Shown: positions 50 to 26,409, numbered from the stretch's first letter. The stretch is DNA of 64,000 bases from GCF_988243305.1 NZ_OZ547136.1, one strand, 5' to 3'. Translations and numbers: made by a program. Notes: a model not told the origin generated them from the letters alone.

Positions 50-3000
50 TTAATACAACGTATCCGGTAAACGGAATTGGCTGAACAGACCACCGGTGAA
101 CGGGTTATCTTCGGTATCCACATGCACCCGATAAACCATCGCGCCGCCGTCCACGTTAAAGCGCACGTTAAAGGTGTCACTGGTCACGTTGGTCAACTGG
201 CCCGCGCCGAACAGGCGGAACTGCGCCCACGGTCCACTGAAAGCGATACTGCGCGGTGCTCCACCGCTGGTGCCAACCAGCGTCAGCTTGCTTTCATTGC
301 CTTCACGCATGTTGTTTGGCCAGACCAGATGGGCGGTATAGTTGCGTCCCTGGCTGTAGTCCACTAACTGGCCGTCCAGGTTAAGTACGCTGCGCCGTTT
401 ATTGCCGGAAAGCGACACCGTTTCCACGGCAAATTGTGTGCCCAGCCCGTTCTGCTGGCTGAAGAAGATGTCGCGGATTTTTTGCGCGGTATCCAGTTGT
501 TGTCGGATATCTTCACGGATCAGCACTCTGCCGTCGTCGCCAAAGGTCAGATCGTTTTCAAGGAACAGTCGCAGGTTGTCCTTATAGAAATTGTCCAGAA
601 TGCCATCCGGTTTAAAGAAACGTTCAAACGCATCCAGTGAGGCATCCTGTGAGGCGCGTGGATTAAACGGATAGTTACCGGCAAGCTGTTCGTTGAAGGG
701 TTTCACTACATTGTCGCGCCAGTCCACTTCCATGTAATGAACAGCTTCCACCATCACCACGTGCCAGGCCTGATCCGCCAGCTTGCCCACCCAGCGGTTA
801 AGCGGTGCAGGCAGGGTTTTTGCCATCTGGCGGGTGGCGAAGATTGGATCGCTGCTGTTTTGATCCAGGCGTAGCTGCACTGCTTTCAGCGCCGATTTTC
901 CCGGCACTGGCGAGTTCTGGATCGCCAGCAGGTAACGGTGCAGCTCGGTCAGTTGCTGGTACACGGCCTGTAGCGTACTCGCCTTGTCCTTTTGCTCCTC
1001 CAGTGCGCTGTTTTCCGGTGCGAACTCATGCCCCAGCCGGGACAACAGGCGGTAATCCATCTCATTTATCACCGCTTCCCGCGCCTTATCGTCCAGTTTG
1101 CCGGAGAGCGTCAGCGCGTGTGTATTATCGCGCAGCGCCGTCAGCGCACGCTGGAATGGCTGATCGCCGCTGATAATCTGCTCCAGCGCGTCGGTCAGCG
1201 CCGGCATGGCCTCATAGTCACGGACGTTGAGATTATCCATTCCGGCACGCCATGTAGCGGTATAGTCACTGAGGTACTGTTCAGTGATATGGCGCTGGAT
1301 CTCTTCACGGTCGGCCTCGCTGTAGGCGACGCTTTGCGTCAGGTTCAGCACCCACGAATCCAGCGCGGTCAACTCAACGAGACCGTCGTGTTGTTTGATA
1401 AAATAGCTTTGCAGGCCATAGCGGGTGAGAAACTGCGGGATCACCAGTTTTTCATCATTACCGGCGACGAACACGTTGTCGAAGGTGGGACCAACCTGGT
1501 CGCGCAAATTCAAATCGGCGGGCAACACGCTTAATGCTTTGGTGCGTAGGGTCTGGTAGACACGCTGGTATATCGGCAGTTTGCTCAGTTCATGTTGCGC
1601 ATTAATGACCGGTTTATCATAGGGTGTCCAGCGGCTGATGGCGTCGCTGTCGCCGCTCTGGCGCTGCGCGTGCCAGTCGGTGTGTTCCAGCGCATAGTCC
1701 AGATGTGCCATCAGTTGCGCCTGAATATCACGCTGGCCGTGAAATTCATTGCTCCAGCGCCGCGCCATGTACTGTTTTACCGCCTCGTTGTTGCGCCCAC
1801 TTTTGTCTTCCATCATGCGCACTACGCGCAGCACGGCGAGTTTTTCTTCACTCTCAGGCGGGGCATTGTTCAGATCCCGGATCAGGCCGTTCATTAACGA
1901 GGGGAGATAACGCTGCTCAAGAAGCTGAATGTAGGTTTGTTCCACATATGGCCCTACGCGGACGCCCTGGTACAATCCCATATCCGCCAGAAAACCGTGA
2001 TCGCGGTAATCGCCGTAGGCGAGGGTGGCATCGCGTACCGGGTTGAGTAACGGCAGTTGCAGATTGCCGAATTCATCCTTTCCCTGCGGTGGTGGTACGT
2101 CCATAAAGGCTTTAGCCTGTGCCAGTACGTTAACGCCGGACTGCCAGTTCTGGTTGTAATAATGGTGCCAGCTTCCGACCAGCAATGCCGCCAGTGCCGC
2201 GCCACAGGCGGAAAAGGCGGTCAGCCTGCGCCGGGAGCTGTTCAGCCAGACGCTGTTTTCACCTGCAAGGTTTGGCTCGGCTAGCAGGACTTCCGGGAAG
2301 AGGCGGCGGGTGAAATACGGCGTTGTTTCCACCAGGGGCCAGGTCGCCAGCGAGCTGTTGCCCAGCCCGTACTGGCGGGCGGCGGACTGCGTGAAAATAT
2401 CATCCACCTGGCCGCGCTGTAGCGAGGATGTGAGCCAGACGCCGCGCAGCATCACATCCATATTCTCGCCGTCCAGCAATGCGGCGAGCAGTGAAGTGAC
2501 GATTTCTCCCGTTCCCTGCATCTGACGGGAGAAGCTGAACACGGCGCTGCGTAGCGCAGCACCGGTCTGCACGAGCATCAGGTCTGACAGGGCCAGGTTC
2601 ATCTGTTGTCCCCAGGTCTGCCAGAAGGTGCTCAGCTCGCTGCGCCAGTCATCGTTTTCATGAGCGCGGCGGGTAAACGTGACGCCGAGGATCGCGTCGC
2701 GGTCTTTTTTATCCAGTGAATGGAACAGCGCGGCAAAGCCGGTCAGTAGATCCAGCCGGGTCAGCACCACATAAACGGGCAACCGGCAGTGCAGGCACTG
2801 GCGAATTTCCTGAAGTTGCTGACGCAGATTTTGTACCAGTGCTTCGCGACGGAGTTTATCCGCCGTCAGCAGTTCGGGAAGATCGAGCGTCAGGATCAGA
2901 CCATTGAGCGGCTGGCGTGCGCGCGTTTCCATCAGCCAGCCCAGCCAGTGTTCGCGCAGGCGGCGGTGGAGCAGATCATCCCCGCCGGGGGAGGTCAGTA

Positions 3001-3577
3001 CGCCGTCAACATCGAAAATTACTGCCTGGTTGCCCACTCGCGGTGTGATCAGCGGATGATATTCCACACCCCGGATGCTTTCCGGCATGTAAATAATGTC
3101 AGACGGAAAGCCCTCGCGCAGCAGCGTGCTTTTGCCGCTACCCGCAGGACCAATGACCATATACCACGGCAACTGCCACAGATAACTGCGGTTATCCAGA
3201 TGGCGGCGCAGGCGCAGCAGCCAGTGATCCAAATATTGCTGCTGGTGGTGGAGTTCCACGGTCAACGGATCTTTTTCTTCCTCCCGCTGCTGTTTCTGCT
3301 GTTTTTCCAGCTTTTGCAGACGCTTCATTACCCGCCAGGTGAGCCAGACCAGAGCGATAAGCCCCCAGACGGCGGTCGCCAGCCAGCGGTTTGCCAGCGG
3401 AGCCAGCCAGTGCTGCTCATAGAGCGTCCATTTTGGACCCTGCCACCAGATCCACACCAGCAGAAAAATCCATGCCAGCGCCAGCAGCCAGGCGGCGGAT
3501 ACCTTGAATCGCGGCATCGCTGGCCTGAGCGCAGATCTCAACGAGCTGAACAGTCGGGATGTGGGAAATTTGAACAC
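50..3577 (-). CDS. tssM: Type VI secretion membrane subunit TssM (IcmF family)
   Basis: 1175-aa ORF; N-terminal hydrophobic helices (AWLLALAWIFLLVWIWW); Walker A-like GPAGSGKST; size and position typical of TssM; last gene of the minus-strand T6SS operon. Confidence 0.9.
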   Translation of the reverse strand: MFKFPTSRLFSSLRSALRPAMPRFKVSAAWLLALAWIFLLVWIWWQGPKWTLYEQHWLAPLANRWLATAVWGLIALVWLTWRVMKRLQKLEKQQKQQREEEKDPLTVELHHQQQYLDHWLLRLRRHLDNRSYLWQLPWYMVIGPAGSGKSTLLREGFPSDIIYMPESIRGVEYHPLITPRVGNQAVIFDVDGVLTSPGGDDLLHRRLREHWLGWLMETRARQPLNGLILTLDLPELLTADKLRREALVQNLRQQLQEIRQCLHCRLPVYVVLTRLDLLTGFAALFHSLDKKDRDAILGVTFTRRAHENDDWRSELSTFWQTWGQQMNLALSDLMLVQTGAALRSAVFSFSRQMQGTGEIVTSLLAALLDGENMDVMLRGVWLTSSLQRGQVDDIFTQSAARQYGLGNSSLATWPLVETTPYFTRRLFPEVLLAEPNLAGENSVWLNSSRRRLTAFSACGAALAALLVGSWHHYYNQNWQSGVNVLAQAKAFMDVPPPQGKDEFGNLQLPLLNPVRDATLAYGDYRDHGFLADMGLYQGVRVGPYVEQTYIQLLEQRYLPSLMNGLIRDLNNAPPESEEKLAVLRVVRMMEDKSGRNNEAVKQYMARRWSNEFHGQRDIQAQLMAHLDYALEHTDWHAQRQSGDSDAISRWTPYDKPVINAQHELSKLPIYQRVYQTLRTKALSVLPADLNLRDQVGPTFDNVFVAGNDEKLVIPQFLTRYGLQSYFIKQHDGLVELTALDSWVLNLTQSVAYSEADREEIQRHITEQYLSDYTATWRAGMDNLNVRDYEAMPALTDALEQIISGDQPFQRALTALRDNTHALTLSGKLDDKAREAVINEMDYRLLSRLGHEFAPENSALEEQKDKASTLQAVYQQLTELHRYLLAIQNSPVPGKSALKAVQLRLDQNSSDPIFATRQMAKTLPAPLNRWVGKLADQAWHVVMVEAVHYMEVDWRDNVVKPFNEQLAGNYPFNPRASQDASLDAFERFFKPDGILDNFYKDNLRLFLENDLTFGDDGRVLIREDIRQQLDTAQKIRDIFFSQQNGLGTQFAVETVSLSGNKRRSVLNLDGQLVDYSQGRNYTAHLVWPNNMREGNESKLTLVGTSGGAPRSIAFSGPWAQFRLFGAGQLTNVTSDTFNVRFNVDGGAMVYRVHVDTEDNPFTGGLFSQFRLPDTLY

Positions 3578-3596
3578 AGTAACTCCTTGTTATCTT

Positions 3597-5039
3597 TTAC
3601 TGTTCTGCCGTGAATTTTTGTTCCAGTGCTTTCAGCAGGGAAGGCTCCCATTCGGGTAGCATCATGTGTAAGCCTGTTTTGAAGAGCATCCGGTACTGCT
3701 GTTGTGCAAGCTGAACCATACCGGCTTCTTCCAGTAACTGCGCGCCGAAAAATTGGCGATGAAACTGGTTACGGGGATCACCTTCGGGCAGGTTTTCCAG
3801 ATACCGCAGCGCGGTTTCCAGCCCGTTCTCATCGAAGCACGCCCTGGCCGCCTGTAATTCTTCATCGGTCTGTACAGCTGCTGCGGTTTGGTTGCCTGAG
3901 CCCGATGGTGCCAGCCACTGTTTCGTCTGTTCGGACACAAACGGAGTGCGGTCGTTAAACAACAGGTTGATCAGTGCGGGCAGGCGAGCAAGAAAACTGG
4001 TAACTTCATCACGGATAGCATCCGCCACCTGTATATAACCAAGGCGCAACGCGGTCTGTGCTGAGAGGTAATGGCCGTCCAGCCAGTACGGGGCCAGCAG
4101 CAGGCTTTTTTCCACCTGCTGCCAAAGCGCCATGTCGGCATTGTTCAGTCGCGCCAGATAGTCATCCATCATATCTACAGGGAAAGCAGCCAGAGGGGTC
4201 CGGCCATCGCTTTCTGCCTGCGGGGTACTGGTGATGGTCTGCCACAGCGCATGGCGGCGCAGGCGGTAACCCAGCGGTGACTCCGGCTGACGTTCACAGA
4301 GAATGGCGGCTACCTTCAACAGGGTGTCGCGCCATGCTTTATCATCGTGGCTGTCCACGGTGACCTGCGGGATTGGAGTGGCTGCAACAGGAGGCTGAGC
4401 GGAAACTGTGTGCGGTAACATATCCGGTGCAGATCCGGTCGTGGCCTGCGGCGCAATGGCGGCGGTTCGTGCAGATGATGGCATTTCAGGCGCTACATCA
4501 CGAAACGCGCGCTGAAACAGAGTAAATAAATCGTCTGTCGCCTTAGCCAGCTCAGGCGCGTTGTGCGCCTGCCAGCACAGTGCCAGTTTTGCCAGCTCTC
4601 CCAGCAAAGCATCGCGCTGTGTTGTCACAGCATTCCCGGCAAAGTCATGAATGGCCGACTCAAAGCGTTTTATCACTTGGGTGGCGAAGCGTTTTTTGTG
4701 GGCCATGTTCTGCGGCGCGGCGCATGTCCAGTAGTGCTCTGTATATTGTGTCAGTATCCTGGAGGCCAGCAGAATATCACCGGCATGTTGCAGGGTACGC
4801 AGCAGGTGGGCCAGCAGGCGAAAATCTTTGGTTTCTGAGGCCAGAAGCATCAGGCCCCGGCGCTGAAGTTCGGGGATATCAAGCTGGCTGTGCGCCAGTG
4901 AACCGAGCTTGACGATTTCGCTGTCGATAAACTCCCAGTCTGCATTGCCATCATCAAGCGCGGCGGACAGCTTATCTTCCGGCAGGTTTTCCAGCAGGTG
5001 TGCAAGCCATATATCAGGATTACGTAAGTCCATTGCCAT
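3597..5039 (-). CDS. tssA: Type VI secretion protein TssA (ImpA family)
   Basis: ORF track gives 3597..5105; preferred start is the ATG at 5039 (MAMDLRNPDIW...), which has an AGGAGA Shine-Dalgarno 8 nt upstream on the minus strand and avoids overlap with the upstream gene; about 480 aa. Confidence 0.8.
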   Translation of the reverse strand: MAMDLRNPDIWLAHLLENLPEDKLSAALDDGNADWEFIDSEIVKLGSLAHSQLDIPELQRRGLMLLASETKDFRLLAHLLRTLQHAGDILLASRILTQYTEHYWTCAAPQNMAHKKRFATQVIKRFESAIHDFAGNAVTTQRDALLGELAKLALCWQAHNAPELAKATDDLFTLFQRAFRDVAPEMPSSARTAAIAPQATTGSAPDMLPHTVSAQPPVAATPIPQVTVDSHDDKAWRDTLLKVAAILCERQPESPLGYRLRRHALWQTITSTPQAESDGRTPLAAFPVDMMDDYLARLNNADMALWQQVEKSLLLAPYWLDGHYLSAQTALRLGYIQVADAIRDEVTSFLARLPALINLLFNDRTPFVSEQTKQWLAPSGSGNQTAAAVQTDEELQAARACFDENGLETALRYLENLPEGDPRNQFHRQFFGAQLLEEAGMVQLAQQQYRMLFKTGLHMMLPEWEPSLLKALEQKFTAEQ

Positions 5040-5043
5040 ATTT

Positions 5044-5787
5044 TTATTCTCCTGCCCAGTGGCAGGCGTCGCGTAGCGGCGCAATAACCCGCGCCAGCCC
5101 GTCAATGTTAAAGGTCAGCTTTCCGGCAGCATTGTCTGTGCCGGTATCAACCGTCAGTGTTTTAGCAGCGAATAGTTGCTTAATTTCATCAATACCGGAT
5201 AACCCCCGGCTGGACTCCAGCAGGGTGCCGTTCTCGCGCACAAACCAGTGGCTGCGCAATGCCCGGCTGTCGGCATTCAGGGTGACGGCGATATCATGGA
5301 CATCCAGAGGATGCATCAGCGCCACCTGCATCCGGGTGATATTGTCCACGCAACTGAACATCAGCACCGGGCGCGGCGGAACATGACCGATAGCCGGGGT
5401 GGTTATCACTACCGTCGGGCGTTCACCCGGCACCTGCGTCACCAGCAGCTCTGTGGTGCTGCCCTGGCGGCGTTTTTCCTGCTCTGTGGCGCGGGTCCAG
5501 GCTTCGCCCACAAAGCTGGCTTTGACCAGTGCGGCGTTGCCGAAGCCGGGCTGTTCCGGTGCAAGAATGCGGTCATAACAGTCAAGCCGCTCCAGCGCCG
5601 CAGATTCCCGCCGACAGGACTGCATGGCCTGTAACGTGGCTGTCGCATCCGGCGGGGGCGTGGTGGCGACGGCGACCGCCGCACCGGCCATTGACGATGT
5701 TTCTGCGGGCGCGGCACTGGCGGGTAAGCCCGCCATCAGGCCCGCGATAAACCATCCTGCCTGCCGGAAAACGCGCAACCTGCTCAT
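5044..5787 (-). CDS. T6SS-associated exported protein (VasI/TagO-like); family assignment tentative
   Basis: 247-aa ORF embedded between clpV and tssA; N-terminal signal-peptide-like segment (FIAGLMAGLPASAAPA); 4-nt overlap with the clpV stop suggests translational coupling. Confidence 0.5.
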   Translation of the reverse strand: MSRLRVFRQAGWFIAGLMAGLPASAAPAETSSMAGAAVAVATTPPPDATATLQAMQSCRRESAALERLDCYDRILAPEQPGFGNAALVKASFVGEAWTRATEQEKRRQGSTTELLVTQVPGERPTVVITTPAIGHVPPRPVLMFSCVDNITRMQVALMHPLDVHDIAVTLNADSRALRSHWFVRENGTLLESSRGLSGIDEIKQLFAAKTLTVDTGTDNAAGKLTFNIDGLARVIAPLRDACHWAGE

Positions 5788-8516
5788 AAAACCGTTTCAT
5801 CCTTTGTGACAAACTCGTCGTCCTGAGCATCTTCCACGTCTGCCGTGAACGCGCCGTCTGCCGCCGACAGGCGGATACGGGCAATCGCCGTGTTGGCTGC
5901 CATTTTCTGCAACAGCAGCAGCGAGAGCGGCGGCAGCATGTCGCCATCGATGACCGATTCCAGCATCCTCGCGCCGTTTTCCGCGCGGGTGACGCGGCTC
6001 ATGATTTCGTCCGTCACTTCCGGCTCAATAATCACGTCCGCGCCAAAGCGGCTGCGCAGCACGTTATCCAGACGGGCCAGTTTCCCGGCAATAATGGTGG
6101 CGAGCGTCTCTTTCGACAGCGGCAGGTATGGCACCACTTCCATACGCGCCAGCAGCGCCGGTTTAAAGAAGTCCGCCAGCACCGGATAGAGCACTTCCTG
6201 CATGGTTTCCGGGTCATCGGCGTGTTCGACAATCACCTGATAACCAAGGTTGGAGGTGAGGAAGAAAACGATGTTTTTACAGTCAATCAGGCGGCCTTCG
6301 CCGTCTGCCATCTCGCCCTTGTCGAACGCCTGGTAGAACAGGTTGAGGACATCCGGGTGCGCTTTTTCCACTTCATCGAGCAGCACCACCGAGTAGGGTT
6401 TCTGGCGGATCGCTTCGGTCAGTACGCCGCCTTCGCCATAGCCGACATAGCCCGGAGGGGAGCCAATCAGCCGCGAGACGGTGTGTTTCTCCTGGAACTC
6501 GGACATATTGATGGTGGTCAGGTACTGGCGACCGCCGTAGAGCAGCTCTGCCAGTTGCAGGACGGTTTCGGTTTTACCCACGCCGCTGGGGCCAGCCAGC
6601 AGGAACGCGCCGAGCGGGCGTCCCGGACGGCGCAGGTCGGCGCGTGCGGTCAGCAGGTGTTTATGCAGGCTGGCAATTGCCAGGTCCTGGCCTTTGATGG
6701 TGTCACCAAGCCACTTCGGCAGGTCGGTGATGACCGACATTTCATTCTGCGACAGGCGGTTAAGCGGTACGCCGGTCCATTCGGCAATCACCGCCGCAAT
6801 CTGTTTTTTATCGACGTGCGGGGAAACCAGCAACCGGTCGTTATGCAGGGCGTCCAGTTCGGCAGTGAGTTGTACTAGCTGCTGCACCGGGGAAACTGTT
6901 TCAGCGGTCTCTTCCGGCTGTGTACTGCCCGCATCATCAGCCGGTGCGGTACCGGTATTATCCTGTTCTGACTCTGGCGGCGTATCCACTACGGCATCTG
7001 TGTCCTCTGTCACACCCAGCAATAGCTGGCGCAGCGCGATAATTTCCCGTACCAGCTTCTGCTGCTGGTGCCAGGCCGCTTCCAGTTCATCCAGCGCCGT
7101 CAGCGTTTCATCGTACTGCACCAGCACCTCAGTCATCCGTGAAGTGTCGGTACGCAGCCCGATGCGAAGCTCGCGCTCAAGCTGGCGAATTTCCGCCTCC
7201 TGCTGGTGGCTCAGGGTGGTCAGCGCCGAGATTTGCTTCGGTGGCGATGACAGGTTGATGGCCACACGGGCGCAGGCGGTATCCAGCACATCAATGGCTT
7301 TGTCCGGCAACTGACGCCCGGAGAGATAACGCTCGCTCAGCGTTGCTGCGGCCTGCAAGGCGTCATCATCAATCAGCACGCCGTGAGACTGTTCATAGAC
7401 CGCCGACAAACCGCGCAGAATAATGGTGGCTTCGGTGGCGTTGGGTTCGCTGATCTTCACTAACTGGAAGCGGCGCGACAAAGCTGCATCTTTCTCGAAG
7501 TATTTTTTGTATTCGCTCCAGGTTGTGGCGGCGATGGTTTTCAGTTCGCCACGCGCCAGCGCCGGTTTGAGCAGGTTGGAGATATCCAGCCCGCCCTGCT
7601 GGTTGCCCGCGCCAATCAGAGTATGTGCTTCGTCGATAAACAGAATGACTGGCACCGGAGAGGAAATGACCTCCGCCATCAGCCCCTTGAAGCGTTTTTC
7701 AAACTCACCTTTCACCGACGCACCGGCCTGTAATGCGCCCAGGTCAAGGGTCATAATATCGGTGTTTTTCAGCTTGTCCGGCACCTGGCCTGAGACAATA
7801 CGCAGCGCCAGCCCTTCGATTAAGGCACTTTTACCCACACCCGCTTCACCCACCACCACCGGATTGTTTTTACGACGGCGGCAGAGAATGTCGATCATCA
7901 GGTCGATTTCATGGTCACGGCACAGTACAGGGTCAAGTTTGCCGTTACGGGCATCTTCGGTCATGTTTTTGGCGTAGCGGGCAAGCCCGCTGTCGCCGGT
8001 TTCAGGCGTGCCGGGTGCCTGTCCGCCAACCTGGTTCACGGATTCGGCGGACTCTTTAGTCCATGACGCGAAATCCTGCTGTAACTGGTCGCGGTTTATG
8101 GCCGTCAGCAGACGGGCAGCAGCGGGTGGAATATAGCGCAGCGGTGAATGCAGCAGAGCCAGCAGCAGCACGCCGCCGCGTAGTTCGCTGTGCTGCATCT
8201 GGGCCGAGGCCAGCAGCCATGACTCCTTGAGCCATTCGACCAGCATCGGGGAGAAGCTGGGATAGCCTTCGGCGGAACGTCCGCTGGGATAACTCTCCAC
8301 GGTCAGCGCCTGGCGTAGCTCCTCCGCACTGATGCCTGTGCGTTCGGTAATTACCCTTACGTCGTTGCGCGGGATAGACAGCATCTGCAACAGCACATGG
8401 GCAACGGTGATCTCACTGGCCTGCTGGCTCATACACTCCGAGGCAGCCATTTCCAGCGCCTGTTTTGCAAAGGGGTTAAGCCGCTTTACCAGCGTGGCTA
8501 AATCAATCTGGATCAT
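5784..8516 (-). CDS. clpV: T6SS AAA+ ATPase ClpV (TssH)
   Basis: 910-aa ORF with two AAA+ modules: Walker A GEAGVGKS and GPSGVGKT; Clp N-domain-like N-terminus. Confidence 0.9.
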   Translation of the reverse strand: MIQIDLATLVKRLNPFAKQALEMAASECMSQQASEITVAHVLLQMLSIPRNDVRVITERTGISAEELRQALTVESYPSGRSAEGYPSFSPMLVEWLKESWLLASAQMQHSELRGGVLLLALLHSPLRYIPPAAARLLTAINRDQLQQDFASWTKESAESVNQVGGQAPGTPETGDSGLARYAKNMTEDARNGKLDPVLCRDHEIDLMIDILCRRRKNNPVVVGEAGVGKSALIEGLALRIVSGQVPDKLKNTDIMTLDLGALQAGASVKGEFEKRFKGLMAEVISSPVPVILFIDEAHTLIGAGNQQGGLDISNLLKPALARGELKTIAATTWSEYKKYFEKDAALSRRFQLVKISEPNATEATIILRGLSAVYEQSHGVLIDDDALQAAATLSERYLSGRQLPDKAIDVLDTACARVAINLSSPPKQISALTTLSHQQEAEIRQLERELRIGLRTDTSRMTEVLVQYDETLTALDELEAAWHQQQKLVREIIALRQLLLGVTEDTDAVVDTPPESEQDNTGTAPADDAGSTQPEETAETVSPVQQLVQLTAELDALHNDRLLVSPHVDKKQIAAVIAEWTGVPLNRLSQNEMSVITDLPKWLGDTIKGQDLAIASLHKHLLTARADLRRPGRPLGAFLLAGPSGVGKTETVLQLAELLYGGRQYLTTINMSEFQEKHTVSRLIGSPPGYVGYGEGGVLTEAIRQKPYSVVLLDEVEKAHPDVLNLFYQAFDKGEMADGEGRLIDCKNIVFFLTSNLGYQVIVEHADDPETMQEVLYPVLADFFKPALLARMEVVPYLPLSKETLATIIAGKLARLDNVLRSRFGADVIIEPEVTDEIMSRVTRAENGARMLESVIDGDMLPPLSLLLLQKMAANTAIARIRLSAADGAFTADVEDAQDDEFVTKDETVL

Positions 8517-8525
8517 AAGATGTCC

Positions 8526-9299
8526 TTATCGGAGTAATTTATTGAGCTGATGCAGAATATCCTGTGTCTGGCTGTCCAGACGCAGCAGATAAAACAGATA
8601 AAATACGGCCAGCACAACAAGACCGCCGCACATTACATGCCTGATGGTCAGCCGCCGGATTAACTGATAACGCCCGCCCTGTATGTTGTTCTTCTGGTGA
8701 AGCAGCGGAAATGGCGCGTCACCGCGCAGTTTGTGCAGGGCATGGTGCAGGCGCTGGTAGATCCGCTCAAATTCATCCTGTTGCTGAATGGCAACCTTGT
8801 AGCGCCCGCGAAAGCCGAGCGAAAAACAGAGATATAAAAATTCCAGCAGATCCTGGTAACGTACCGGCTCCCGGATCAGGCGTTCGAGCAGGATAAACAC
8901 TTTCTCGCCGCCCCAGGCTTCGTTATGAAAATGAACCAGCAGCGACTGTTTGATCCATTCGTTTTTGTTGGACCAGCCGTTGCCCAGCGCCGCTTCGTCA
9001 ATAAACGTGCAGAGAATGTAGCGGAACGAAACAATGACGCCCGGCTCGTAACCCTGCTCCTGGAGTAGTTGTTCCACAGCCTGGACATCGGTTACCACCT
9101 GGGCAAACAGATGTTCCGGCATGGCCTGGCTGTTCATGGTGGACAGACGCATCACCATGCCGAGCAACGGCGTGGCGGCGTCAATCATTGGGTTCAGGCT
9201 GTTGCCGCGAAGGGCGAGACGATACTGACGTCCTGATGTTCCGCTCTCCGGCTCCATGGGAAAAACCGACGGTTCACCCATATCGCTGATATCGCTCAT
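8526..9299 (-). CDS. tssL: T6SS membrane protein TssL (DotU family)
   Basis: 257 aa; C-terminal transmembrane helix (GGLVVLAVFYLFYLL); position between tssK and clpV. Confidence 0.85.
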   Translation of the reverse strand: MSDISDMGEPSVFPMEPESGTSGRQYRLALRGNSLNPMIDAATPLLGMVMRLSTMNSQAMPEHLFAQVVTDVQAVEQLLQEQGYEPGVIVSFRYILCTFIDEAALGNGWSNKNEWIKQSLLVHFHNEAWGGEKVFILLERLIREPVRYQDLLEFLYLCFSLGFRGRYKVAIQQQDEFERIYQRLHHALHKLRGDAPFPLLHQKNNIQGGRYQLIRRLTIRHVMCGGLVVLAVFYLFYLLRLDSQTQDILHQLNKLLR

Positions 9300-9303
9300 T
9301 CAC

Positions 9304-10650: not shown

Positions 10651-10652
10651 CG

Positions 10653-12466: not shown

Positions 12467-12470
12467 AGAA

Positions 12471-13520
12471 TTATTCCCTGATTCGGATTGTGATGGCGGG
12501 CGGTACTTTCGGCTGACCAATAAAGCTGGTTCTGCCGAGGCGGGAGCTGGCCGGATCGCCAAGGTGCATCCCTTTAGCCTGCTGTGGTGCCAGGCACAGC
12601 CGTAAATCCCAGGCAAACTGGTCGCGCAGAATAAAGGAAAGGAACATGGTCAGCGGCAGGTGATTTTCGCCATCGGGTAAAAATGAGAGATAACGCTCCC
12701 GCGACAGGCCGCCAATCTGCAACAGGAATTTTCCGCTGCGATCCGGCACCCGTGCGCCGAGGGTAAAATTAACGCCGAGTATGGAGCGTCCCGGAATATG
12801 TCCAGCCGTTTTTCCTTTCGGATTACGTACACCCAGCCGGTTCTGGTGTGCCGGATCAATGGCGACTTTACGCAGTTGCCAGCGTTCAATGGTGACATCC
12901 GGCAAATCAAAACAGTGCGACACAAGATTACAGATGACCTCCGGCGCGCGGCCTGGTGTTGCCAGAATTCCGGCGTAGGCCAGCATTTTGCTGTGGTTAA
13001 TGGCAAGCCTGTCACGCACGCTCTGATTACCCAGCCCGACCAGTGCGTACATGCGCTGTGAAAAGGTGTCAGTACCGCCGTTACGAAAGCAGATGTAGTA
13101 GCGGTATTTGCGCCAGGCATGATAGGCAAACTGTGTCCAGCGGTGGCTGAATAGATCGAGAAATTCTTTCAGGCCGTCTTCGTTCTGTGCGGACTCCTGC
13201 GCCATCTGATCCAGATAATAGCCCGGTAGCGGCGACTGGCTGCCGGAAAAACCCAGGAACCGGGTTTGCAGTACATACTGTCCGTTCTGGCTACGGGAAA
13301 GCGCACTCAGGTCCGTACCCGGAAAACCGATACTGGCGTCAGAGCTGAAACGCACGATCTCCCGGGCAGGCTCGGTACGCAGGGAAATGTCCTGGCCCGG
13401 CGTGCCATACCGACGGTACAGCGCCTCCATTAGCACATAGAAATTGCAGTTGCGCACATCCGCCGGTAACGGCGGTTTTGCCGCTATATCAGGGCGTGCT
13501 GGCCCATTTTCTCCTGCCAT
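12471..13520 (-). CDS. tssG: T6SS baseplate protein TssG
   Basis: 349 aa; operon position between tssF and tagH; the 37-nt overlap with tssF means the true start could be the internal ATG at 13430. Confidence 0.8.
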   Translation of the reverse strand: MAGENGPARPDIAAKPPLPADVRNCNFYVLMEALYRRYGTPGQDISLRTEPAREIVRFSSDASIGFPGTDLSALSRSQNGQYVLQTRFLGFSGSQSPLPGYYLDQMAQESAQNEDGLKEFLDLFSHRWTQFAYHAWRKYRYYICFRNGGTDTFSQRMYALVGLGNQSVRDRLAINHSKMLAYAGILATPGRAPEVICNLVSHCFDLPDVTIERWQLRKVAIDPAHQNRLGVRNPKGKTAGHIPGRSILGVNFTLGARVPDRSGKFLLQIGGLSRERYLSFLPDGENHLPLTMFLSFILRDQFAWDLRLCLAPQQAKGMHLGDPASSRLGRTSFIGQPKVPPAITIRIRE

Positions 13521-15343
13521 TCCCAGGACTCCTGACTTTCCGTGTTAATGATTTTCAGACAGTGATACGAATTGATGCTGGCGTAGAGGGCAAAAAAGTG
13601 CGAGAGCACGGTACCCAGAAGATAAATTTCACCTTCGCAGATAAACGGATCGGGACGTATCCACAGCGTGGTCGCCAGCCCGCGAACCGGTACGCCTTTA
13701 AACAACCTGTCAACAGGTTTGGTTTCGAGTTTTTCTATGGCATCCAGTTTCTGGCGTGACAGTCTGGCCCGCTGCGGATGGTGAGCACCCGGCAGGTCGA
13801 AGGTCCGCAGGATCTGGATCAGTGTCTCCCTGTCCAGCAGGGAGAGGTAGTTCAGGTTCATCGCGGAAATCAGCGACCAGTGCATGTCGCCGTCCGTGAC
13901 CGGCCAGAGCGGTTGTGTCGGGCGCGTAACATTATGAAATGAGGCCACCGCCGGGTTTTTGTTGACGGCCACGCAGATATCGCCGGTATGCAGCCGGGCA
14001 GGGATCATACGGTTGGTACAGATTAATGACGTGGTGATCACATCATCATTAAACCGTGAGCTGTCCGGAATGCTGCCGTCCGCATGGACAAAGGCGATGG
14101 AATGTTCAAGCCCATGGTGAAGCAGGGACGTTTTAGTCCGGTGATGCCAGTAGACGACTTCCCGCTGGCGGCTGTACTCCATCTGGTGCTGGAAACTTTC
14201 AAATTCGGGCCAGACACGCACCTGGCTGCCGGGGCTGGAATCAGTCCCTGAAACTTTGATTTTACTGGTGACTGTGCTGACCTGAAAAATGTCATAGGCG
14301 TCCGGATGCTTATGGCTGGCGCGCAGCGGGTATTCCGCCATCCGCCCATCCGGCCTGACGGGTTCCGCATAATGCGTAAACAGGTTAATGGCTGGCGTAC
14401 AGTGCAGACGCAGCGAATCCTGGCGCAGCTTGATGTCGGCAGGTAATGGGCGGTTAAAGTGCAGGCGCAGCGTAAACGCACTCACCGGGAAATCGTCTGG
14501 TAGCGGCGCAACATCGCGCAGATGGAAAAAGAAGAAGGCTTCGGGATAGCAGAAATACTCCTGAAGCACGCGGTAGCCGTTGTGGACATTTTTCGGCCAC
14601 GGCAGCAGGGCATCCTGGTTGTCAAAACCCGCAGCATCCAGCCACAGATCCGGCAGCGGCAGGCTGTGCTCTCCGGCAATCAGTTCCGCATCCATCAGGC
14701 ATTCGCAAAACCACAGATAAAGCTGGTGTCGGGTATAATCGTCTTCATTACCCAGCCAGAACGTGATTTTGTTCAGGTCAAGCATGGCGGGGGAGACATT
14801 GTTATCTGCGGTAAAACTGATATCTATGATGCCTTCTTTCAGACTGCTGGCGTTGCGGGTGTCGAGAATGCGCAGCGGTTGCAGCCAGATATCGCGCGCC
14901 AGCGTGAAATGGCAGGCTACGGAAGAAACGATTTTATCATGATTGTCAGCCAGCACCTTCTGAGCAGCCGGGGAGGACTTTTCTGATCGGCTTCTGATCA
15001 GTTCATTACGGCAGACCTGAACAGGGACTTTTAACTGATCGGTTTTGGGTTCATAGGCAATAACCGTCATGGCCGGAACCGGGCGTAAATAGTTTGCCCA
15101 CAGCATACGGATCAGCCCATGGGTGAATTCGGGAAATTCGTCTTCAAGTTTCTGGCGCAGGCTACCGGACATAAAGGCAAAGGCTTCCATCAGTCGCTCC
15201 ACATCCGGATCACCCTCTTTCTCGGCCAGAAAATGGGCCAGATGCGGTTTTTCCTGCGCCAACAGTTTGCCAAGCTGGCGCAGATAATCCAGTTCTTCGC
15301 GGTAGTAACGTTCTTCAAAAGCCACAGAGATCACTCCACACAA
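13484..15343 (-). CDS. tssF: T6SS baseplate protein TssF
   Basis: 619 aa; N-terminal EERYYREELDYLRQLG motif typical of TssF. Confidence 0.85.
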   Translation of the reverse strand: MCGVISVAFEERYYREELDYLRQLGKLLAQEKPHLAHFLAEKEGDPDVERLMEAFAFMSGSLRQKLEDEFPEFTHGLIRMLWANYLRPVPAMTVIAYEPKTDQLKVPVQVCRNELIRSRSEKSSPAAQKVLADNHDKIVSSVACHFTLARDIWLQPLRILDTRNASSLKEGIIDISFTADNNVSPAMLDLNKITFWLGNEDDYTRHQLYLWFCECLMDAELIAGEHSLPLPDLWLDAAGFDNQDALLPWPKNVHNGYRVLQEYFCYPEAFFFFHLRDVAPLPDDFPVSAFTLRLHFNRPLPADIKLRQDSLRLHCTPAINLFTHYAEPVRPDGRMAEYPLRASHKHPDAYDIFQVSTVTSKIKVSGTDSSPGSQVRVWPEFESFQHQMEYSRQREVVYWHHRTKTSLLHHGLEHSIAFVHADGSIPDSSRFNDDVITTSLICTNRMIPARLHTGDICVAVNKNPAVASFHNVTRPTQPLWPVTDGDMHWSLISAMNLNYLSLLDRETLIQILRTFDLPGAHHPQRARLSRQKLDAIEKLETKPVDRLFKGVPVRGLATTLWIRPDPFICEGEIYLLGTVLSHFFALYASINSYHCLKIINTESQESWEWQEKMGQHALI

Positions 15344-15756
15344 TAGCGTTGATGGTTGTCCAGCAAAATGTCAAATTCAAACACTCCCCTGGTCTCGCTG
15401 ACATCGATCGTAGCCACAATATGAAAACGCAGTTCCACAGGGGCGTATTCATCCGGTGCCGCAGCCGTAACAACAACATCGGTAATACGAGGTTCGTAAT
15501 GTAAAATGCACTGGCTAATGGACTTACGGATTTCTCGTCTGAAATCGCTGGAGGCCAGCGATTCATCATTTAAATCAGTAATCCCCAGCTCCGGTGAGCC
15601 ATAACAACTGCCGGAGCGGGTATTCAGGACCTGTCGCAGGTTACGTCTGATGGAACGTATCAGTGCTTCTTTTGGATTCTGATATGAAGGCGGATTTGCC
15701 GCCTCACGGATACGTTCAAAAAGACTGCCGGTTGGTCCTGAATCCCGTCTTTGCAC
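15331..15756 (-). CDS. tssE: T6SS baseplate protein TssE (gp25-like)
   Basis: 141 aa; gp25/GPW-like small baseplate protein downstream of tssC. Confidence 0.85.
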   Translation of the reverse strand: MQRRDSGPTGSLFERIREAANPPSYQNPKEALIRSIRRNLRQVLNTRSGSCYGSPELGITDLNDESLASSDFRREIRKSISQCILHYEPRITDVVVTAAAPDEYAPVELRFHIVATIDVSETRGVFEFDILLDNHQRYCVE

Positions 15757-15760
15757 CGGA

Positions 15761-17245
15761 TTATTCCTTATCCAGTCGTCCGACCAGGCTCAGGTCGAAA
15801 CTGGCACCCATGTATTTAAAATGCGGTCTGACAGAAATCGCGACCTGGTACCAGCCCGGCTCACCATCCACATCCAGTACCTCGATCTTAGCCTGACGCA
15901 AAGGCCGGTGGCTGCGGACTTCGGCAGGCGGATTTTCCTGGTCAGCAACATACTGGCGAATCCAGGTGTTCAGCTCACGCTCCAGGTCACTACGTTCTTT
16001 CCATGAGCCAAGCTGTTCGCGCTGAATTACCTTGATGTAATGCGCTAACCTGCTGATAACAAACAAGTATGGCAGCTGGGTGCCGAGTTTATAGTTGGTC
16101 TCCGCAGCCTTGCCTTCGGGGGTTTTGGGGAATGTTTTGGGTTTCTGCACCGAGTTGGCCGAGAAAAAGCACGCATTATCAGACCCTTTACGCATGGTCA
16201 GTGTGATAAAGCCCTCTTCCGCCAGCTCATACTCTCTCCGGTCAGTGATCAACACTTCAGTCGGAATTTTTGCCTGCATTTGCCCCATGGATTCATACAG
16301 ATGCACCGGGAGGTCTTTGACTGCGCCGCCGCTGGAAGGGCCAATAATATTTGGGCACCAGCGATACTTAGCAAAACTTTCCGCCAGGTTGGCGGCCAGT
16401 AAAAACGAGGTATTCCCCCACAGATAAGACTCATGACTCTGGCTGACATCTTCATGGTAACGGAAGGTTTTGACAGGGTTTTCATCCGGTGAGTAAGGGT
16501 GGCGCAGCAGGAACCGGGGGGCGGTCAGGCCCAGGTAACGGGAATCTTCCGATTCACGCAGGGCGCGCCAGCGGGAGTAGGCCGGGCCTTCAAAGATGGC
16601 ACCCGGTTCTTTGATCCCCGGTAACTCTGTCCATGAATCCAGACCGAAAAATTCGGATGATACTGACGACAGGAACGGGCTGTGCGCCATCGCGCTGACC
16701 TGGCTGATATATTTCAGCAACTTCATATCCGGCGTGGTGTTCTTAAAGGCAAAGTTGCCGATTACCGCCGCCACTGGCTCACCGCCAAATTGTCCGTAAC
16801 CGCTTGAATATACATGCTTGTAATACGCAGACTGCGTGATTTCAGGTGCAAATTCGAAATCATCCAGCAGTTCTTCCTGAGTGACATTCAGGAAATGGAC
16901 TTTGATGTTTTCCCGTGTATCCGCGCGTTCAACCAGCAGCTTCAGCGAGCGCAGCAGGGATTCCAGTTCCTGAAACTCCGGGGCATGAATAATGGCATCC
17001 ATCTGCCTGCTGGTTCGGGCATCAATATCAGCAATCATGGCGTCAACGGCCAGGATATTGATAGGTTCAGCGCTACTGTCGCCCTGTAACATGGCGGCAA
17101 TAAAGGCGCTCACGCCCTGGCGGGTGATATCGTAGCTTTCTGATTTAGGCTGGACGCGGGTTTGCGCCATGATTTCATCAAGCAGAGATGGGGGCGCGGC
17201 GGTTTGAGACGCGCTGACGGGAGCAATTTCTTCCTTTACTGACAT
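15761..17245 (-). CDS. tssC: T6SS contractile sheath large subunit TssC (VipB)
   Basis: 494 aa; size and sequence character of TssC; follows tssB. Confidence 0.9.
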   Translation of the reverse strand: MSVKEEIAPVSASQTAAPPSLLDEIMAQTRVQPKSESYDITRQGVSAFIAAMLQGDSSAEPINILAVDAMIADIDARTSRQMDAIIHAPEFQELESLLRSLKLLVERADTRENIKVHFLNVTQEELLDDFEFAPEITQSAYYKHVYSSGYGQFGGEPVAAVIGNFAFKNTTPDMKLLKYISQVSAMAHSPFLSSVSSEFFGLDSWTELPGIKEPGAIFEGPAYSRWRALRESEDSRYLGLTAPRFLLRHPYSPDENPVKTFRYHEDVSQSHESYLWGNTSFLLAANLAESFAKYRWCPNIIGPSSGGAVKDLPVHLYESMGQMQAKIPTEVLITDRREYELAEEGFITLTMRKGSDNACFFSANSVQKPKTFPKTPEGKAAETNYKLGTQLPYLFVISRLAHYIKVIQREQLGSWKERSDLERELNTWIRQYVADQENPPAEVRSHRPLRQAKIEVLDVDGEPGWYQVAISVRPHFKYMGASFDLSLVGRLDKE

Positions 17246-17267
17246 ACTGAAAATCCTTCTGTGAAAA

Positions 17268-17771
17268 TTATTTCTGAACGGCGATACCCAGTTCCTGGAT
17301 CAGCTGCTCGCGGCTGTCTTCGTTTTCCAGTAGCGCCTGAAGTTGTGCGCGGAAGGCCGGAATATTGCCTAGTGGAGACTTAAGTGCGACCAGTGCCTCA
17401 CGCAGCTCCAGCAGGCGCTTTATTTCCGGCACCTGACTGGCAATATGGTCAGGAGAAAGGTCATCCATAGATTTGACTTTCAGGTTGACGTACATTTGCT
17501 CATTGGGAGCGTCACTGAGTTCAGCCGGAACAACAAACTCCCGTTCAATGTCAGCTTCTGAAATGACTGCGTTGAGGTTATAGCGGTTGATAGCAATGGC
17601 AGTTCGCTCATCCAACGGCGTGTTATCTGGTTTCCCTTTCAGATTGCCGGTGATCAATAAATTCAGCGGCAATTCGATATCAGCAGCCACCCCATCAACT
17701 TTTGGTGTATACCGAACGCTGATTCTTTCTTTCGGCGCGACACTGCCGCCATTGTTGTTCATTTTGCTCAT
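17268..17771 (-). CDS. tssB: T6SS contractile sheath small subunit TssB (VipA)
   Basis: ORF track 17268..17822 starts at a TTG; preferred start is the ATG at 17771 (MSKMNNNGGSVAPKERISVRY...), giving about 167 aa; first gene of the operon. Confidence 0.85.
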   Translation of the reverse strand: MSKMNNNGGSVAPKERISVRYTPKVDGVAADIELPLNLLITGNLKGKPDNTPLDERTAIAINRYNLNAVISEADIEREFVVPAELSDAPNEQMYVNLKVKSMDDLSPDHIASQVPEIKRLLELREALVALKSPLGNIPAFRAQLQALLENEDSREQLIQELGIAVQK

Positions 17772-18474
17772 AAAAATGTTCCCGTTCAGGCCATGAGCAC
17801 AGCATTTTCGTACTGCATACAAATACCGACAATACCGTTTCAGTGGCAGTTAGATAATGTAACCTTCTTTCTGTTGTGATCGGTATTCTACTCATGAAAT
17901 AAAATATTAAAAGAACTATTTATATTTTTGAAAGAGATGTATCCTTCATTATTAATACATGATAGTGAAATCAATTTTGGTATTTATAGACTTGGTGAAT
18001 ATAATTTTACGGCCAATAAAGTGCAATAACACATTGATTTATATGTGTTTATTAAATTGATTAATAAGTTTTGTGTATGGTTTTATAAATTAGTTAATTG
18101 CTAGCAATACATCATAAGAAATTCCTTTAAGGAATATCTTAATTGCGTGCAGGAACGATGGTGAAGTAAGTGTTGTAATAATTTATTTTTGACGAAACTG
18201 TAGGTTTTTATGGGGATAAGGATACGTTATGGATAATTCTACTGTTGATGTTGATATATTTTTAGCTTATGTGACCGTGTTCTGAAATTGACTAAAAATA
18301 TATTTAAACACCATAAAAGAGTTTTTCGGTAGGTGCTAATTACGTGTGCCTGTAACTCGAATAAAGAAAAGGGTGTGGTTCCTGATGTGAGCCGCATCAC
18401 ACTCTAACCTGTCGGGGATTAACGACGGGTTGTTCGTAAAAACAGCAGTTGATAATTTCACAAGGAGTTCACAA
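17772..18474. promoter_or_regulatory. AT-rich divergent control region between tssB (minus) and hcp (plus)
   Basis: About 700 bp of non-coding, strongly AT-rich DNA between divergent operon starts; contains two short perfect or near-perfect palindromes at 18097-18108 and 18121-18135. Confidence 0.5.
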
Positions 18475-18993
18475 ATGCCAACCCCATGTTACATTTCTAT
18501 TACGGGCCAGACCCAGGGGAACATCACTGCCGGTGCTTTCACCGCGGATTCTGTCGGCAATATCTACGTGCAGGGGCACGAAGATGAAATGCTGGTGCAG
18601 GAGTTTTTGCACAACGTTACTGTTCCAACCGATCCGCAGTCTGGCCAGCCTTCCGGCCAGCGCGCGCACAAACCGTTCATTTTCACCGTGGCGCTGAACA
18701 AAGCCGTTCCGCTGCTGTACAACGCGCTGGCCTCCGGTGAAATGCTGCCGAAAGTGGAGCTGCACTGGTGGCGTACTTCAGTTGAAGGCAAGCAGGAGCA
18801 CTACTTCACCACACGTCTTACTGACGCGACGATTGTGGACATGAACCTGCACATGCCGCACTGCCAGGACCCTGCACAGCGTGAGTTTACGCAATTGCTC
18901 GCAGTATCACTGGCATACCGTAAGGTTGAGTGGGAGCACATCAAATCCGGTACTTCTGGTGCCGATGACTGGCGTGCACCGCTGGAAGCATAA
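18475..18993 (+). CDS. hcp: T6SS inner tube protein Hcp (TssD)
   Basis: ATG at 18475 (MPTPCYISITGQTQGNITAGAF...) preceded by AAGGAG 7 nt upstream; 172 aa; ORF track start 18430 is an upstream TTG. Confidence 0.9.
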   Translation: MPTPCYISITGQTQGNITAGAFTADSVGNIYVQGHEDEMLVQEFLHNVTVPTDPQSGQPSGQRAHKPFIFTVALNKAVPLLYNALASGEMLPKVELHWWRTSVEGKQEHYFTTRLTDATIVDMNLHMPHCQDPAQREFTQLLAVSLAYRKVEWEHIKSGTSGADDWRAPLEA

Positions 18994-19004
18994 ATCTGAG
19001 TCAA

Positions 19005-19038
19005 CAACATCCTGCCTTCGTGCAGGATGTTGTTTTTG
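19005..19038 (+). terminator. Rho-independent terminator/attenuator between hcp and vgrG
   Basis: 11-bp perfect stem (CAACATCCTGC / GCAGGATGTTG) with a 6-nt loop, followed by TTTTT, 12 nt after the hcp stop. Confidence 0.6.
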
Positions 19039-19213
19039 TACGTGTAAAAAATGAGTGTCAGTAAGGAGTTACGCTTTCATGAGGGAGATGGCGGATGCCG
19101 GAAACCCGGGCGGTAGCGTACCTGAAAATGTAAAGATGAGTGTAACGCTGCACTGGCACCCTTTGCTGCATGGTGAGAATCATTTGGTCCGTGAATAAAT
19201 CAGGGGGGTCATT

Positions 19214-21196
19214 ATGTCCTTAAAAGGTCTGCGCTTTACGCTGGAGGTTGACGGCCAGGAGCCGGACACCTTTGCAGTGGTGAATTTCAGGTTAATCCAG
19301 AACCAGTCATATCCGTTTGTGATGAGTGTGGATGTTGCCAGCGACTCTTTTATGCAGACGGCGGAGATGCTGCTGGAGAAGAAGGCGACACTGACCATCT
19401 GGCAGGGCGCAGTGGCGCAGCGTTATGTCACCGGCGTGGTGGCGGGTTTTGGCATGCAGGAGAATAACGGCTGGCAGATGCGTTATCACCTGCGTATTGA
19501 GCCGCCGTTATGGCGGTGCGGGCTGCGGCAGAACTTCCGTATCTTCCAGCAGCAGGATATCCGGACGATATCGGCCACGTTACTGAACGAGAACGGCGTC
19601 ACGGAGTGGACGCCGCTGTTTTATGAGGACCATCCGGCGCGGGAGTTCTGTGTCCAGTACGGGGAGTCGGACCTGGCGTTTCTGTCCCGGCTGTGGGCGG
19701 AGGAGGGAATTTTCTTCTTTGAGCGGTTTGCGGCGGACAGTCCGGAGCAGAAGCTGACGCTGTGCGACGATGTGGCGGGGCTGTCACAGGCGGGAGAGCT
19801 TCCGTTTAACCCGGACACATCGACAGGAGCGGAGACGGAGTGTGTCAGTATGTTCCGTTATGAGGCGCATGTCCGCCCGTCGTCGGTGCAGAGCCAGGAT
19901 TACACGTTTAAGGTGCCGGACTGGCCGGGGATGTATGAGCAGCAGGGTGAGAACCTGAACGGACAGCTGGCGCAGTATGAGATATTTGATTATCCGGGAA
20001 GGTTCAAGGACGAGCAGCACGGCAAGGATTTCACGCTGTACCAGATGGGCAGCCTGCGCAGTGATGCGGAAAAGGCCACAGGGCAGAGTAATTCACCGAA
20101 GCTGTGGCCGGGAACGCAGTTTACGCTGACGGGGCATCCGCAGAAGATGCTGAACCGTGAATGGCAGGTGGTACAGAGCATACTGTCAGGAAGCCAGCCG
20201 CAGGCGCTGCACGGCAGCCAGGGGAGAGGAACCACGCTGGGAAATCAGTTAGAGGTGATACCGGCAGACCGGACGTGGCGTCCACGGCTGCAAAGCAAAC
20301 CGAAGGTGGACGGGCCACAGAGCGCCATTGTCACCGGGCCTGCGGGAGAGGAAATCTTCTGCGACGAACATGGCCGGGTACGGGTGAAGTTCCACTGGGA
20401 CCGTTATCACGGGATGACGGAGGCGAGTTCATGCTGGGTGCGGGTATCGCAGGCGTGGGCGGGGCCGGGTTTCGGCAATCTGGCGATACCGCGGGTGGGT
20501 CAGGAGGTGATTGTTGATTTCCTGAACGGCGACCCGGACCAGCCGATAATCATGGGACGGACATACCATGAGGACAACCGTTCGCCGGGGAGTCTGCCGG
20601 GGACGAAGACGCAGATGACGATACGGTCGAAGACCTATAAAGGAAGCGGATTTAACGAACTGCGCTTTGAGGACGCCACAGATAAGGAACAGGTCTATAT
20701 TCACGCGCAGAAGAACATGGATACGGAAGTGCTGAATGACCGGACGACGGACGTGAAGCATGACCACACGGAAACCATTGGTAACGACCAGAAGATAACG
20801 GTGGGGTTGGGCCAGACGGTGAATGTGGGGAGCAAAAAGGAAGGTGGTCATGACCAGAAAGTGACGGTAGCGAACGATCAGCATCTCACGATAAAAAATG
20901 ACCGGCACAAGGTTGTAAATAACAACCAGACAAGCAAGGTGACGGGAACTGATACCGAAGAAGTCGTCAAAAAACAGAGTATTAAAATAGGTGATAATTA
21001 CGAACTGAAAGTTGAGCATGGTACAAAAATCATATCTGGGGACAGTATTGAGCTAATTTGTGGGCAGGGAGAGAGCGGGACTTGTTCCATAAAACTGGAG
21101 AAAACAGGAAAGATAATAATACGGGGGACGGAGTTTCTATTTGAGGCTACCGGTCCTGTAGATATTAAAGGAAAAGATATTCATCTGAACGGATAG
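19214..21196 (+). CDS. vgrG: T6SS spike protein VgrG (TssI), no C-terminal effector extension
   Basis: 660 aa; gp27/gp5-like organisation ending in beta-helix repeats; GGGGGG-type ribosome-binding site upstream. Confidence 0.9.
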   Translation: MSLKGLRFTLEVDGQEPDTFAVVNFRLIQNQSYPFVMSVDVASDSFMQTAEMLLEKKATLTIWQGAVAQRYVTGVVAGFGMQENNGWQMRYHLRIEPPLWRCGLRQNFRIFQQQDIRTISATLLNENGVTEWTPLFYEDHPAREFCVQYGESDLAFLSRLWAEEGIFFFERFAADSPEQKLTLCDDVAGLSQAGELPFNPDTSTGAETECVSMFRYEAHVRPSSVQSQDYTFKVPDWPGMYEQQGENLNGQLAQYEIFDYPGRFKDEQHGKDFTLYQMGSLRSDAEKATGQSNSPKLWPGTQFTLTGHPQKMLNREWQVVQSILSGSQPQALHGSQGRGTTLGNQLEVIPADRTWRPRLQSKPKVDGPQSAIVTGPAGEEIFCDEHGRVRVKFHWDRYHGMTEASSCWVRVSQAWAGPGFGNLAIPRVGQEVIVDFLNGDPDQPIIMGRTYHEDNRSPGSLPGTKTQMTIRSKTYKGSGFNELRFEDATDKEQVYIHAQKNMDTEVLNDRTTDVKHDHTETIGNDQKITVGLGQTVNVGSKKEGGHDQKVTVANDQHLTIKNDRHKVVNNNQTSKVTGTDTEEVVKKQSIKIGDNYELKVEHGTKIISGDSIELICGQGESGTCSIKLEKTGKIIIRGTEFLFEATGPVDIKGKDIHLNG

Positions 21197-23382: not shown

Positions 23383-23409
23383 GTTTTAGATTCAAATGTA
23401 ATAAAGCAA

Positions 23410-26377: not shown

Positions 26378-26409
26378 TTAATAACATAATTACTGCAAAT
26401 AATATCGTA

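Follow-up and report, generated by a model that had tools for sequence, protein, structure and literature searches.

A type VI secretion gene cluster assigned to T6SS2 (subclass i1) of Escherichia coli, with a nonsense allele of its cargo toxin gene cpe1

The 64,000-nucleotide (nt) stretch of NZ_OZ547136.1 (assembly GCF_988243305.1) analyzed here, referred to as the window, carries a type VI secretion system (T6SS) gene cluster at positions 50-21196, followed on its right by a cargo module whose toxin gene, cpe1, is interrupted by a premature stop codon. An initial annotation, made from the sequence alone, had described the cluster as containing all 13 core components plus TagH and a VasI-like protein, tightly packed on the minus strand and with hcp and vgrG divergent. 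Pfam and NCBIfam searches and the gene coordinates agree with that description. All 13 core genes, tssA to tssM (hcp, clpV and vgrG among them), lie in this interval together with tagH and vasI; the Pfam matches are strong and unambiguous for every open reading frame (ORF) of the cluster, and the curated NCBIfam cut-offs are exceeded by 15 of 15 products (TssM, TssA, VasI, TssH, TssL, TssK, TssJ, TagH, TssG, TssF, TssE, TssC, TssB, Hcp and VgrG).

At the left edge of the window lies the 5' end of vasL (minus strand, positions 1-38, with its first 12 codons, MSNNVLTQTIVT, at 3-38); the gene and the operon cross this edge, and in strain NY1601 a VasL domain protein is encoded directly downstream of tssM. 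The same strand then carries tssM (50-3577; TIGR03348, 946 bits), encoding an IcmF-like inner-membrane subunit with a Walker A motif (GPAGSGKS); tssA (3597-5039; TIGR03362), with ImpA_N and VasJ domains; the accessory gene vasI (5044-5787; TIGR03360); and tssH/clpV (5784-8516; TIGR03345, 1122 bits), encoding an AAA+ ATPase with two Walker A and two Walker B motifs. These are followed by tssL (DotU; 8526-9281), the baseplate gene tssK (9304-10650), tssJ for an outer-membrane lipoprotein with the lipobox LTGC (10653-11177), tagH for an FHA-domain accessory protein (11174-12454; TIGR03354), the baseplate genes tssG (12471-13520), tssF (13484-15325) and gp25-like tssE (15331-15756), and the genes for the large and small sheath subunits, tssC (15761-17245) and tssB (17268-17771). 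The plus strand carries hcp (tssD; 18475-18993), which encodes the tube protein, and an intact vgrG (tssI; 19214-21196), which encodes a spike protein of 660 amino acids (aa).

The junctions between the minus-strand genes, taken from tssM to tssB with RefSeq-style starts, measure 19, 4, -4, 9, 22, 2, -4, 16, -37, 5, 4 and 22 nt, and 8 of the 12 are overlaps or gaps of no more than 10 nt. From this spacing and the shared orientation, we infer that the arrangement fits a single transcription unit. The spacer between tssB and hcp is 703 nt long (17772-18474) and has a lower guanine-plus-cytosine (GC) content (~45%) than the structural genes (55-60%); it is presumed to hold the divergent promoter region, and the matches to promoters within it were consensus-like only. 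A consensus scan for promoters and terminators over 17.6-27.6 kb returned counts near the shuffled expectation and nothing interpretable, and an Rfam search for structured RNAs over 1-31 kb at gathering thresholds returned zero matches.

The integrity of the machine genes was assessed by end-to-end protein alignment with the orthologues of E. coli ATCC 11775. All 15 proteins are full length and colinear with their counterparts at 92.9-100% identity, and TssC and Hcp are 100% identical. Internal frameshifts, the defect that the initial annotation had named as telling against completeness, were absent from these alignments, as were internal stops, in all 15 structural and accessory ORFs. The sole change in length comprises in-frame indels in ClpV (910 aa versus 919 aa in ATCC 11775), in which DDVASLP (7 aa; near alignment columns 505-511) and TPQ (3 aa; columns 911-913, near the C terminus) are missing and one additional His is present. 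ClpV retains its two Walker A and two Walker B motifs, TssM its Walker A motif and TssJ its lipobox. At the level of its genes, the T6SS apparatus is intact.

Downstream of vgrG, the plus strand continues with a cargo module of three genes. The first (21303-22349; PF09937, 2e-71) encodes a DUF2169 accessory protein (putative adaptor/chaperone) and lies directly upstream of cpe1, which it overlaps by 8 nt. DUF2169 proteins serve as chaperones for PAAR-like (DUF4150) effectors. The second, cpe1 (synonym tsap; 22342-23781), comprises a PAAR-like domain (Tox-PAAR-like, PF13665, 5e-12), a linker and a papain-like (C39-like) cysteine protease toxin domain. The third, cpi1 (23756-24046), is an intact immunity gene whose product is identical to that of ATCC 11775 at 96 of 96 positions and matches chain C of PDB 9L5U. 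RefSeq names the orthologues in strain S88 'cysteine protease effector Cpe1' (479 aa) and 'immunity protein Cpi1'. The Cpe1 protease cleaves GyrB and ParE and has Cys362 as its catalytic residue (PMC12136450). In strain RS218, competition through the T6SS depends on tsap, and toxicity is confined to bp 1041-1437, the C39 part (PMC10434152).

In the window, cpe1 contains an amber codon (TAG, 23380-23382) at codon 347 (E347*), which arises from a single G-to-T change (GAG to TAG, alignment column 1039 against S88) and has its flanking parts in the same frame. The codon falls exactly at the junction of carrier and toxin, between the linker and the toxin domain, with the catalytic Cys362 lying 15 codons further on. 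The ORF upstream of it specifies 346 aa that are 98.8% identical to the N-terminal part of Cpe1; the downstream in-frame part agrees at 131 of 132 positions with the toxin domain crystallised as chain A of PDB 9L5U, and the downstream ORF called by RefSeq begins at Met369 and lacks Cys362. The window encodes no single protein chain in which the PAAR-like carrier is joined to the Cys362 protease domain; what is left is a truncated allele or pseudogene of the Cpe1 family with a predicted product of 346 aa, a PAAR-like carrier without toxin. Using a 61-nt probe centred on the mutation, the T allele was found in 2 of 332 cpe1-bearing complete genomes, those of NY1601 and Z1323HEC0462. This distribution marks the mutation as real, recent and specific to a lineage. 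The effector encoded by the cluster itself is probably inactive, with its immunity gene kept. The completeness stated in the initial annotation holds for the machine genes, which are free of frameshifts; the cargo toxin gene, which lies outside 50-21196, carries a premature stop. A nonsense allele of cpe1 beside a retained cpi1 illustrates how an effector may be lost while its immunity gene is kept.

Among solved structures, TssC of the window is closest to Vibrio cholerae VipB (783 bits) and TssB to V. cholerae VipA (159 bits). The next-weakest sheath entry for TssC, PDB 5N8N (TssC1 of Pseudomonas aeruginosa), scores 353 bits. TssK matches the TssK entries of enteroaggregative E. coli (EAEC), 5M30 and 6GIY, weakly (118 bits); these presumably represent Sci-1, of subclass i2. 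The accessory set typical of i1 (tagH, vasI and vasL) occurs in V. cholerae-like order, with vasL present as its first 12 codons in the window and as a whole gene in NY1601. E. coli possesses T6SS subclasses i1, i2 and i4b, of which i1 corresponds to the 'T6SS2' of the field (2025 survey, PMC12282107). The T6SS cluster of RS218 carries the same downstream effector, tsap/cpe1 (PMC10434152), and is equated with T6SS2 of avian pathogenic E. coli (APEC) in the literature (PMC4224132). The likeness to VipA and VipB, the weak match to EAEC TssK, the locus and the literature naming therefore lead to an assignment to T6SS2, subclass i1, which is based on best structural relatives, locus and naming.

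Gene order and orientation are identical to those of E. coli T6SS2 (i1) in ATCC 11775, the neonatal meningitis E. coli (NMEC) strain RS218, S88, UTI89, 536 and the APEC 'T6SS2', the chromosomal site is most likely shared, and the same DUF2169-cpe1-cpi1 module and ISAs1 debris are present there. The 21.2-kb segment has 96.1% DNA identity with the cluster of strain 536 at ~245-266 kb, and the cargo region has 98.3% identity with UTI89, S88 and other phylogroup-B2-type strains at ~266-272 kb; the proteins range from 92.9 to 100%. The window differs from the T6SS2 reference in cpe1 E347*, in a rarer tssM-tssK allele and in the in-frame indels of ClpV. The large T6SS cluster of V. cholerae (VipA/VipB, VasA-VasL) has the closest solved sheath and also has TagH/Fha, VasI and VasL. 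Its order, tssB-tssC-tssE-tssF-tssG-fha-tssJ-tssK-tssL-clpV-vasI-tssA-tssM-vasL, is the same as that of the window. Unlike in V. cholerae, the sigma-54 activator gene vasH is absent between clpV and vasI in the window, where these two ORFs overlap by 4 nt; the effectors also differ, and in E. coli hcp and vgrG are divergent and lie beside the cluster. EAEC Sci-1 (E. coli T6SS1, i2) shares the 13 core families and the general mechanism and is distant in sequence (TssK 118 bits); its locus, gene order and accessory genes are different. Relative to the described Cpe1-Cpi1/Tsap system (PMC12136450; PMC10434152; PDB 9L5U), the parts are near-identical and the DUF2169 gene lies upstream, with vgrG further upstream, but in the window the ORF is split by the amber codon between linker and toxin domain, with no intact 479-aa effector.

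With high confidence, we regard the segment as the main cluster of E. coli T6SS2, subclass i1 (V. cholerae-like), probably located in the variable region between the tRNA-Asp gene aspV and yafV, with a genetically intact machine and an effector of its own that is most likely inactive. The mechanism of such a machine is taken from established T6SS biology. TssJ, TssL and TssM would form the envelope-spanning complex, and TssE, TssF, TssG and TssK, with the VgrG spike, the baseplate. Hcp would polymerise into an inner tube within the TssB/TssC sheath under the coordination of TssA, and contraction of the sheath would drive tube and spike into a neighbouring cell, after which the contracted sheath would be recycled by ClpV. 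TagH, VasI and VasL would act as accessory proteins. The plus-strand arm would supply projectile and cargo (Hcp, VgrG, the DUF2169 adaptor and Cpe1), with the N-terminal PAAR-like domain of Cpe1 capping VgrG, its C-terminal papain-like protease cutting GyrB and ParE in the target, and Cpi1 protecting the producer. In the present strain, the codon-347 amber would render the carrier toxin-less, with immunity retained.

Several points weigh against this interpretation. The loss of toxicity is read from the stop codon, and either read-through of the amber or a restart at TTG 23410, with Cys362 kept and the carrier domain missing, may occur. Orphan effectors encoded elsewhere in the genome might also keep the system armed. 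The operon structure is deduced from spacing and orientation only, and the full vasL and a second hcp are seen only in relatives. In addition, the reference system of ATCC 11775 required deletion of hns for activity, and expression and firing in the present strain would be predictions from gene content. Experimental demonstrations of Hcp/VgrG secretion and contact-dependent activity come solely from the orthologues in ATCC 11775 and RS218 (PMC12136450; PMC10434152).

A decaying, non-functional T6SS remnant might also have so complete a look. Such a reading would draw on the nonsense mutation in the cargo gene cpe1, on the vgrG of the closest relative NY1601, which is split by ISEc31, on the ISAs1 debris within the island and on a large survey in which incomplete i1 systems occur in several lineages (PMC12282107). 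We consider it unlikely, given that each of the 15 structural and accessory ORFs runs its full length against a functional reference, free of stops and frameshifts, that the catalytic and lipidation motifs are intact, that vgrG of the window is intact, and that TssC and Hcp are 100% identical to those of the active ATCC 11775 system. That system is active in a delta-hns background, in which E. coli MG1655 is killed in a Cpe1-dependent manner (PMC12136450).

It is even less probable that the amber codon in cpe1 is not inactivating, whether as a sequence error, through read-through, or by way of a split carrier and a free toxin that still intoxicates targets. The toxin-coding part is otherwise undamaged (131 of 132 residues identical to the crystallised domain) and still in frame, and cpi1 is perfectly conserved, which would favour such a scenario. 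However, the T recurs in two complete genomes that were assembled independently and is therefore not a sequence error. The gene is uninterrupted in 330 of 332 genomes, no route onto VgrG is known for a toxin domain that lacks its PAAR-like carrier, and the RefSeq downstream ORF, starting at Met369, omits Cys362. Against reinitiation, direct reading revealed no obvious ribosome-binding site before TTG 23410. Inactivation of the effector is thus the preferred reading of the allele. A doubtful extension is that the allele is more than a fresh pseudogene, because the amber lies exactly at the junction, the toxin part is undamaged and the immunity gene is perfectly conserved: the product might act as a 'blank-firing', toxin-less PAAR-like cap with which the spike still assembles and delivers other, orphan effectors, or low-level amber read-through might yield some full-length toxin.

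Membership in another E. coli T6SS family, T6SS1 (i2, EAEC Sci-1-like) or T6SS3 (i4b), deserves almost no credence: although all T6SS-i subclasses contain the same 13 core families and Pfam/NCBIfam matches alone do not discriminate among them, TssK reaches only 118 bits against 5M30 and 6GIY (presumably Sci-1), TssC scores 783 bits against VipB and 353 bits against 5N8N, DNA identity is 96% with the aspV-linked cluster of 536, UTI89, S88 and ATCC 11775, and that cluster carries the tsap/cpe1 effector of RS218, whose cluster is the one equated with APEC T6SS2 in the literature (PMC4224132).

The T6SS2 cluster is part of a larger island. Its right flank, yafV-ivy-fadE, is inside the window, and its left flank, aspV, is seen in NY1601 and ATCC 11775, where aspV is followed by a hypothetical gene, hcp, vasL and tssM and the locus then continues as far as yafV-ivy-fadE; to the left of tssM, NY1601 has vasL, a second hcp, a gene resembling yafT and the tRNA-Asp gene aspV. 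To the right of vgrG, the island extends for another ~5.4 kb, to ~26.6 kb, at a GC content of 36-38%, and the first backbone gene is yafV (26649-27419, minus strand; 100% aa identity to ATCC 11775). The structural set is complete, as the initial annotation held, but 50-21196 does not mark the borders of the island, as vasL crosses the left edge and cargo and insertion sequence (IS) material reaches ~26.6 kb. Nor is the cluster directly adjacent to yafV: between vgrG and that gene lie ~5.4 kb of cargo genes and IS remnants with a low GC content. The statement of the initial annotation that K-12 lacks the cluster and has small ORFs and an H-repeat pseudogene next to yafV proved correct by the MG1655 annotation and BLASTN: K-12 MG1655 carries aspV-yafT-ykfM-yafU(pseudo)-yafF(pseudo)-yafV-ivy-fadE at this position, with no T6SS cluster. 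Homology with the K-12 backbone resumes at window position 26590 (97.9% identity, BLASTN), and the sole island sequence present in K-12 is the H-repeat/ISAs1 fragment yafF, which corresponds to 24848-25125 (89.6%). K-12 ykfM (159 aa, the length of the island's second Hcp) and yafU were considered as remnants of hcp and vasL, and no homology was found by BLASTP or sensitive BLASTN.

An integrase-borne, tRNA-linked genomic island, which would have an integrase gene and, at its distal border, the tRNA 3' end repeated in direct orientation, was also considered and rejected: no integrase is annotated between aspV and yafV in NY1601 or ATCC 11775, and at the right border, in window 21-28 kb, no repeat derived from aspV exceeds 13 nt. 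The T6SS2 locus is an ordinary accessory island and no new system. All of its parts are already known, from the machine of T6SS2/i1 through the DUF2169 adaptor to Cpe1 and Cpi1, the machine and the effector-immunity pair having been characterised, and the import of the locus beyond annotation is small; the additions made here are the corrected island borders and the rare nonsense allele of the toxin gene.

The island is common in E. coli. A homologue of tssA-vasI-tssH is detectable by megablast in ~2866 of 5426 complete E. coli genomes (about half), and 575 of the 5426 carry 80% or more of the entire segment of 21 kb. Identity of at least 99% over tssA-tssH was found in only 3 of these genomes, the tssM-tssK half being a rarer allele, and two, NY1601 and Z1323HEC0462, are 99.9-100% identical to the 21.2-kb segment. 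Over the island (0-25 kb), NY1601 shows 8 mismatches in 20.5 kb, while the backbone from ~28 kb (fadE onward; 28000-36000) is 1-4% divergent from both NY1601 and Z1323HEC0462; over window 33-57 kb, every complete genome falls below 99% identity. A near-identical island beside a 1-4% divergent backbone therefore suggests that the island or its flank has been exchanged by recombination, and is consistent with regional exchange among strains. Compared with ATCC 11775, the island is mosaic: tssM-tssK differs by 4-9% (41-92 mismatches per kb), tssC by ~0.1% (1 per kb) and DUF2169-cpe1-cpi1 by 0.2-0.8% (2-8 per kb), a pattern consistent with recombinational exchange as is usual in E. coli.

The closest strains diverge exactly at vgrG. 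In NY1601, this gene is split by ISEc31 (NY1601 locus 29556-30769); in the window it is single and intact. Z1323HEC0462 carries an additional hcp-proximal module of vgrG, DUF4123, effector and PAAR genes before vgrG (its locus 1355-6999), which is absent from the window.

The right end of the island, beyond cpi1, consists of IS debris and small ORFs, all on the plus strand. An ISAs1-family (H-repeat) transposase pseudogene occupies 24304-25125, its 3' end (24848-25125) being the homologue of K-12 yafF, and a second ISAs1 fragment at 26397-26596, a direct repeat (82%) of 24478-24677, forms the right-hand end. The two fragments bracket an ORF of 167 aa (25296-25799), which had no match in Pfam, NCBIfam or PDB and no family, structure or function match, and a gene for a DUF2859/PFL_4695-family 'integrating conjugative element' protein (25865-26377; RefSeq start 25889). 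An 18-nt stretch of K-12 (3861-3878 of the compared K-12 locus) matches both junctions, and an origin of the K-12 arrangement by deletion would fit this observation. Outside the island, beside the truncated Flag-2 flhA'-lafU scar, the window at 33989-34087 lacks a segment of ~0.9 kb that in ATCC 11775 (compared locus 32908-33802) carries rayT, a transposase gene associated with repetitive extragenic palindromic (REP) sequences.

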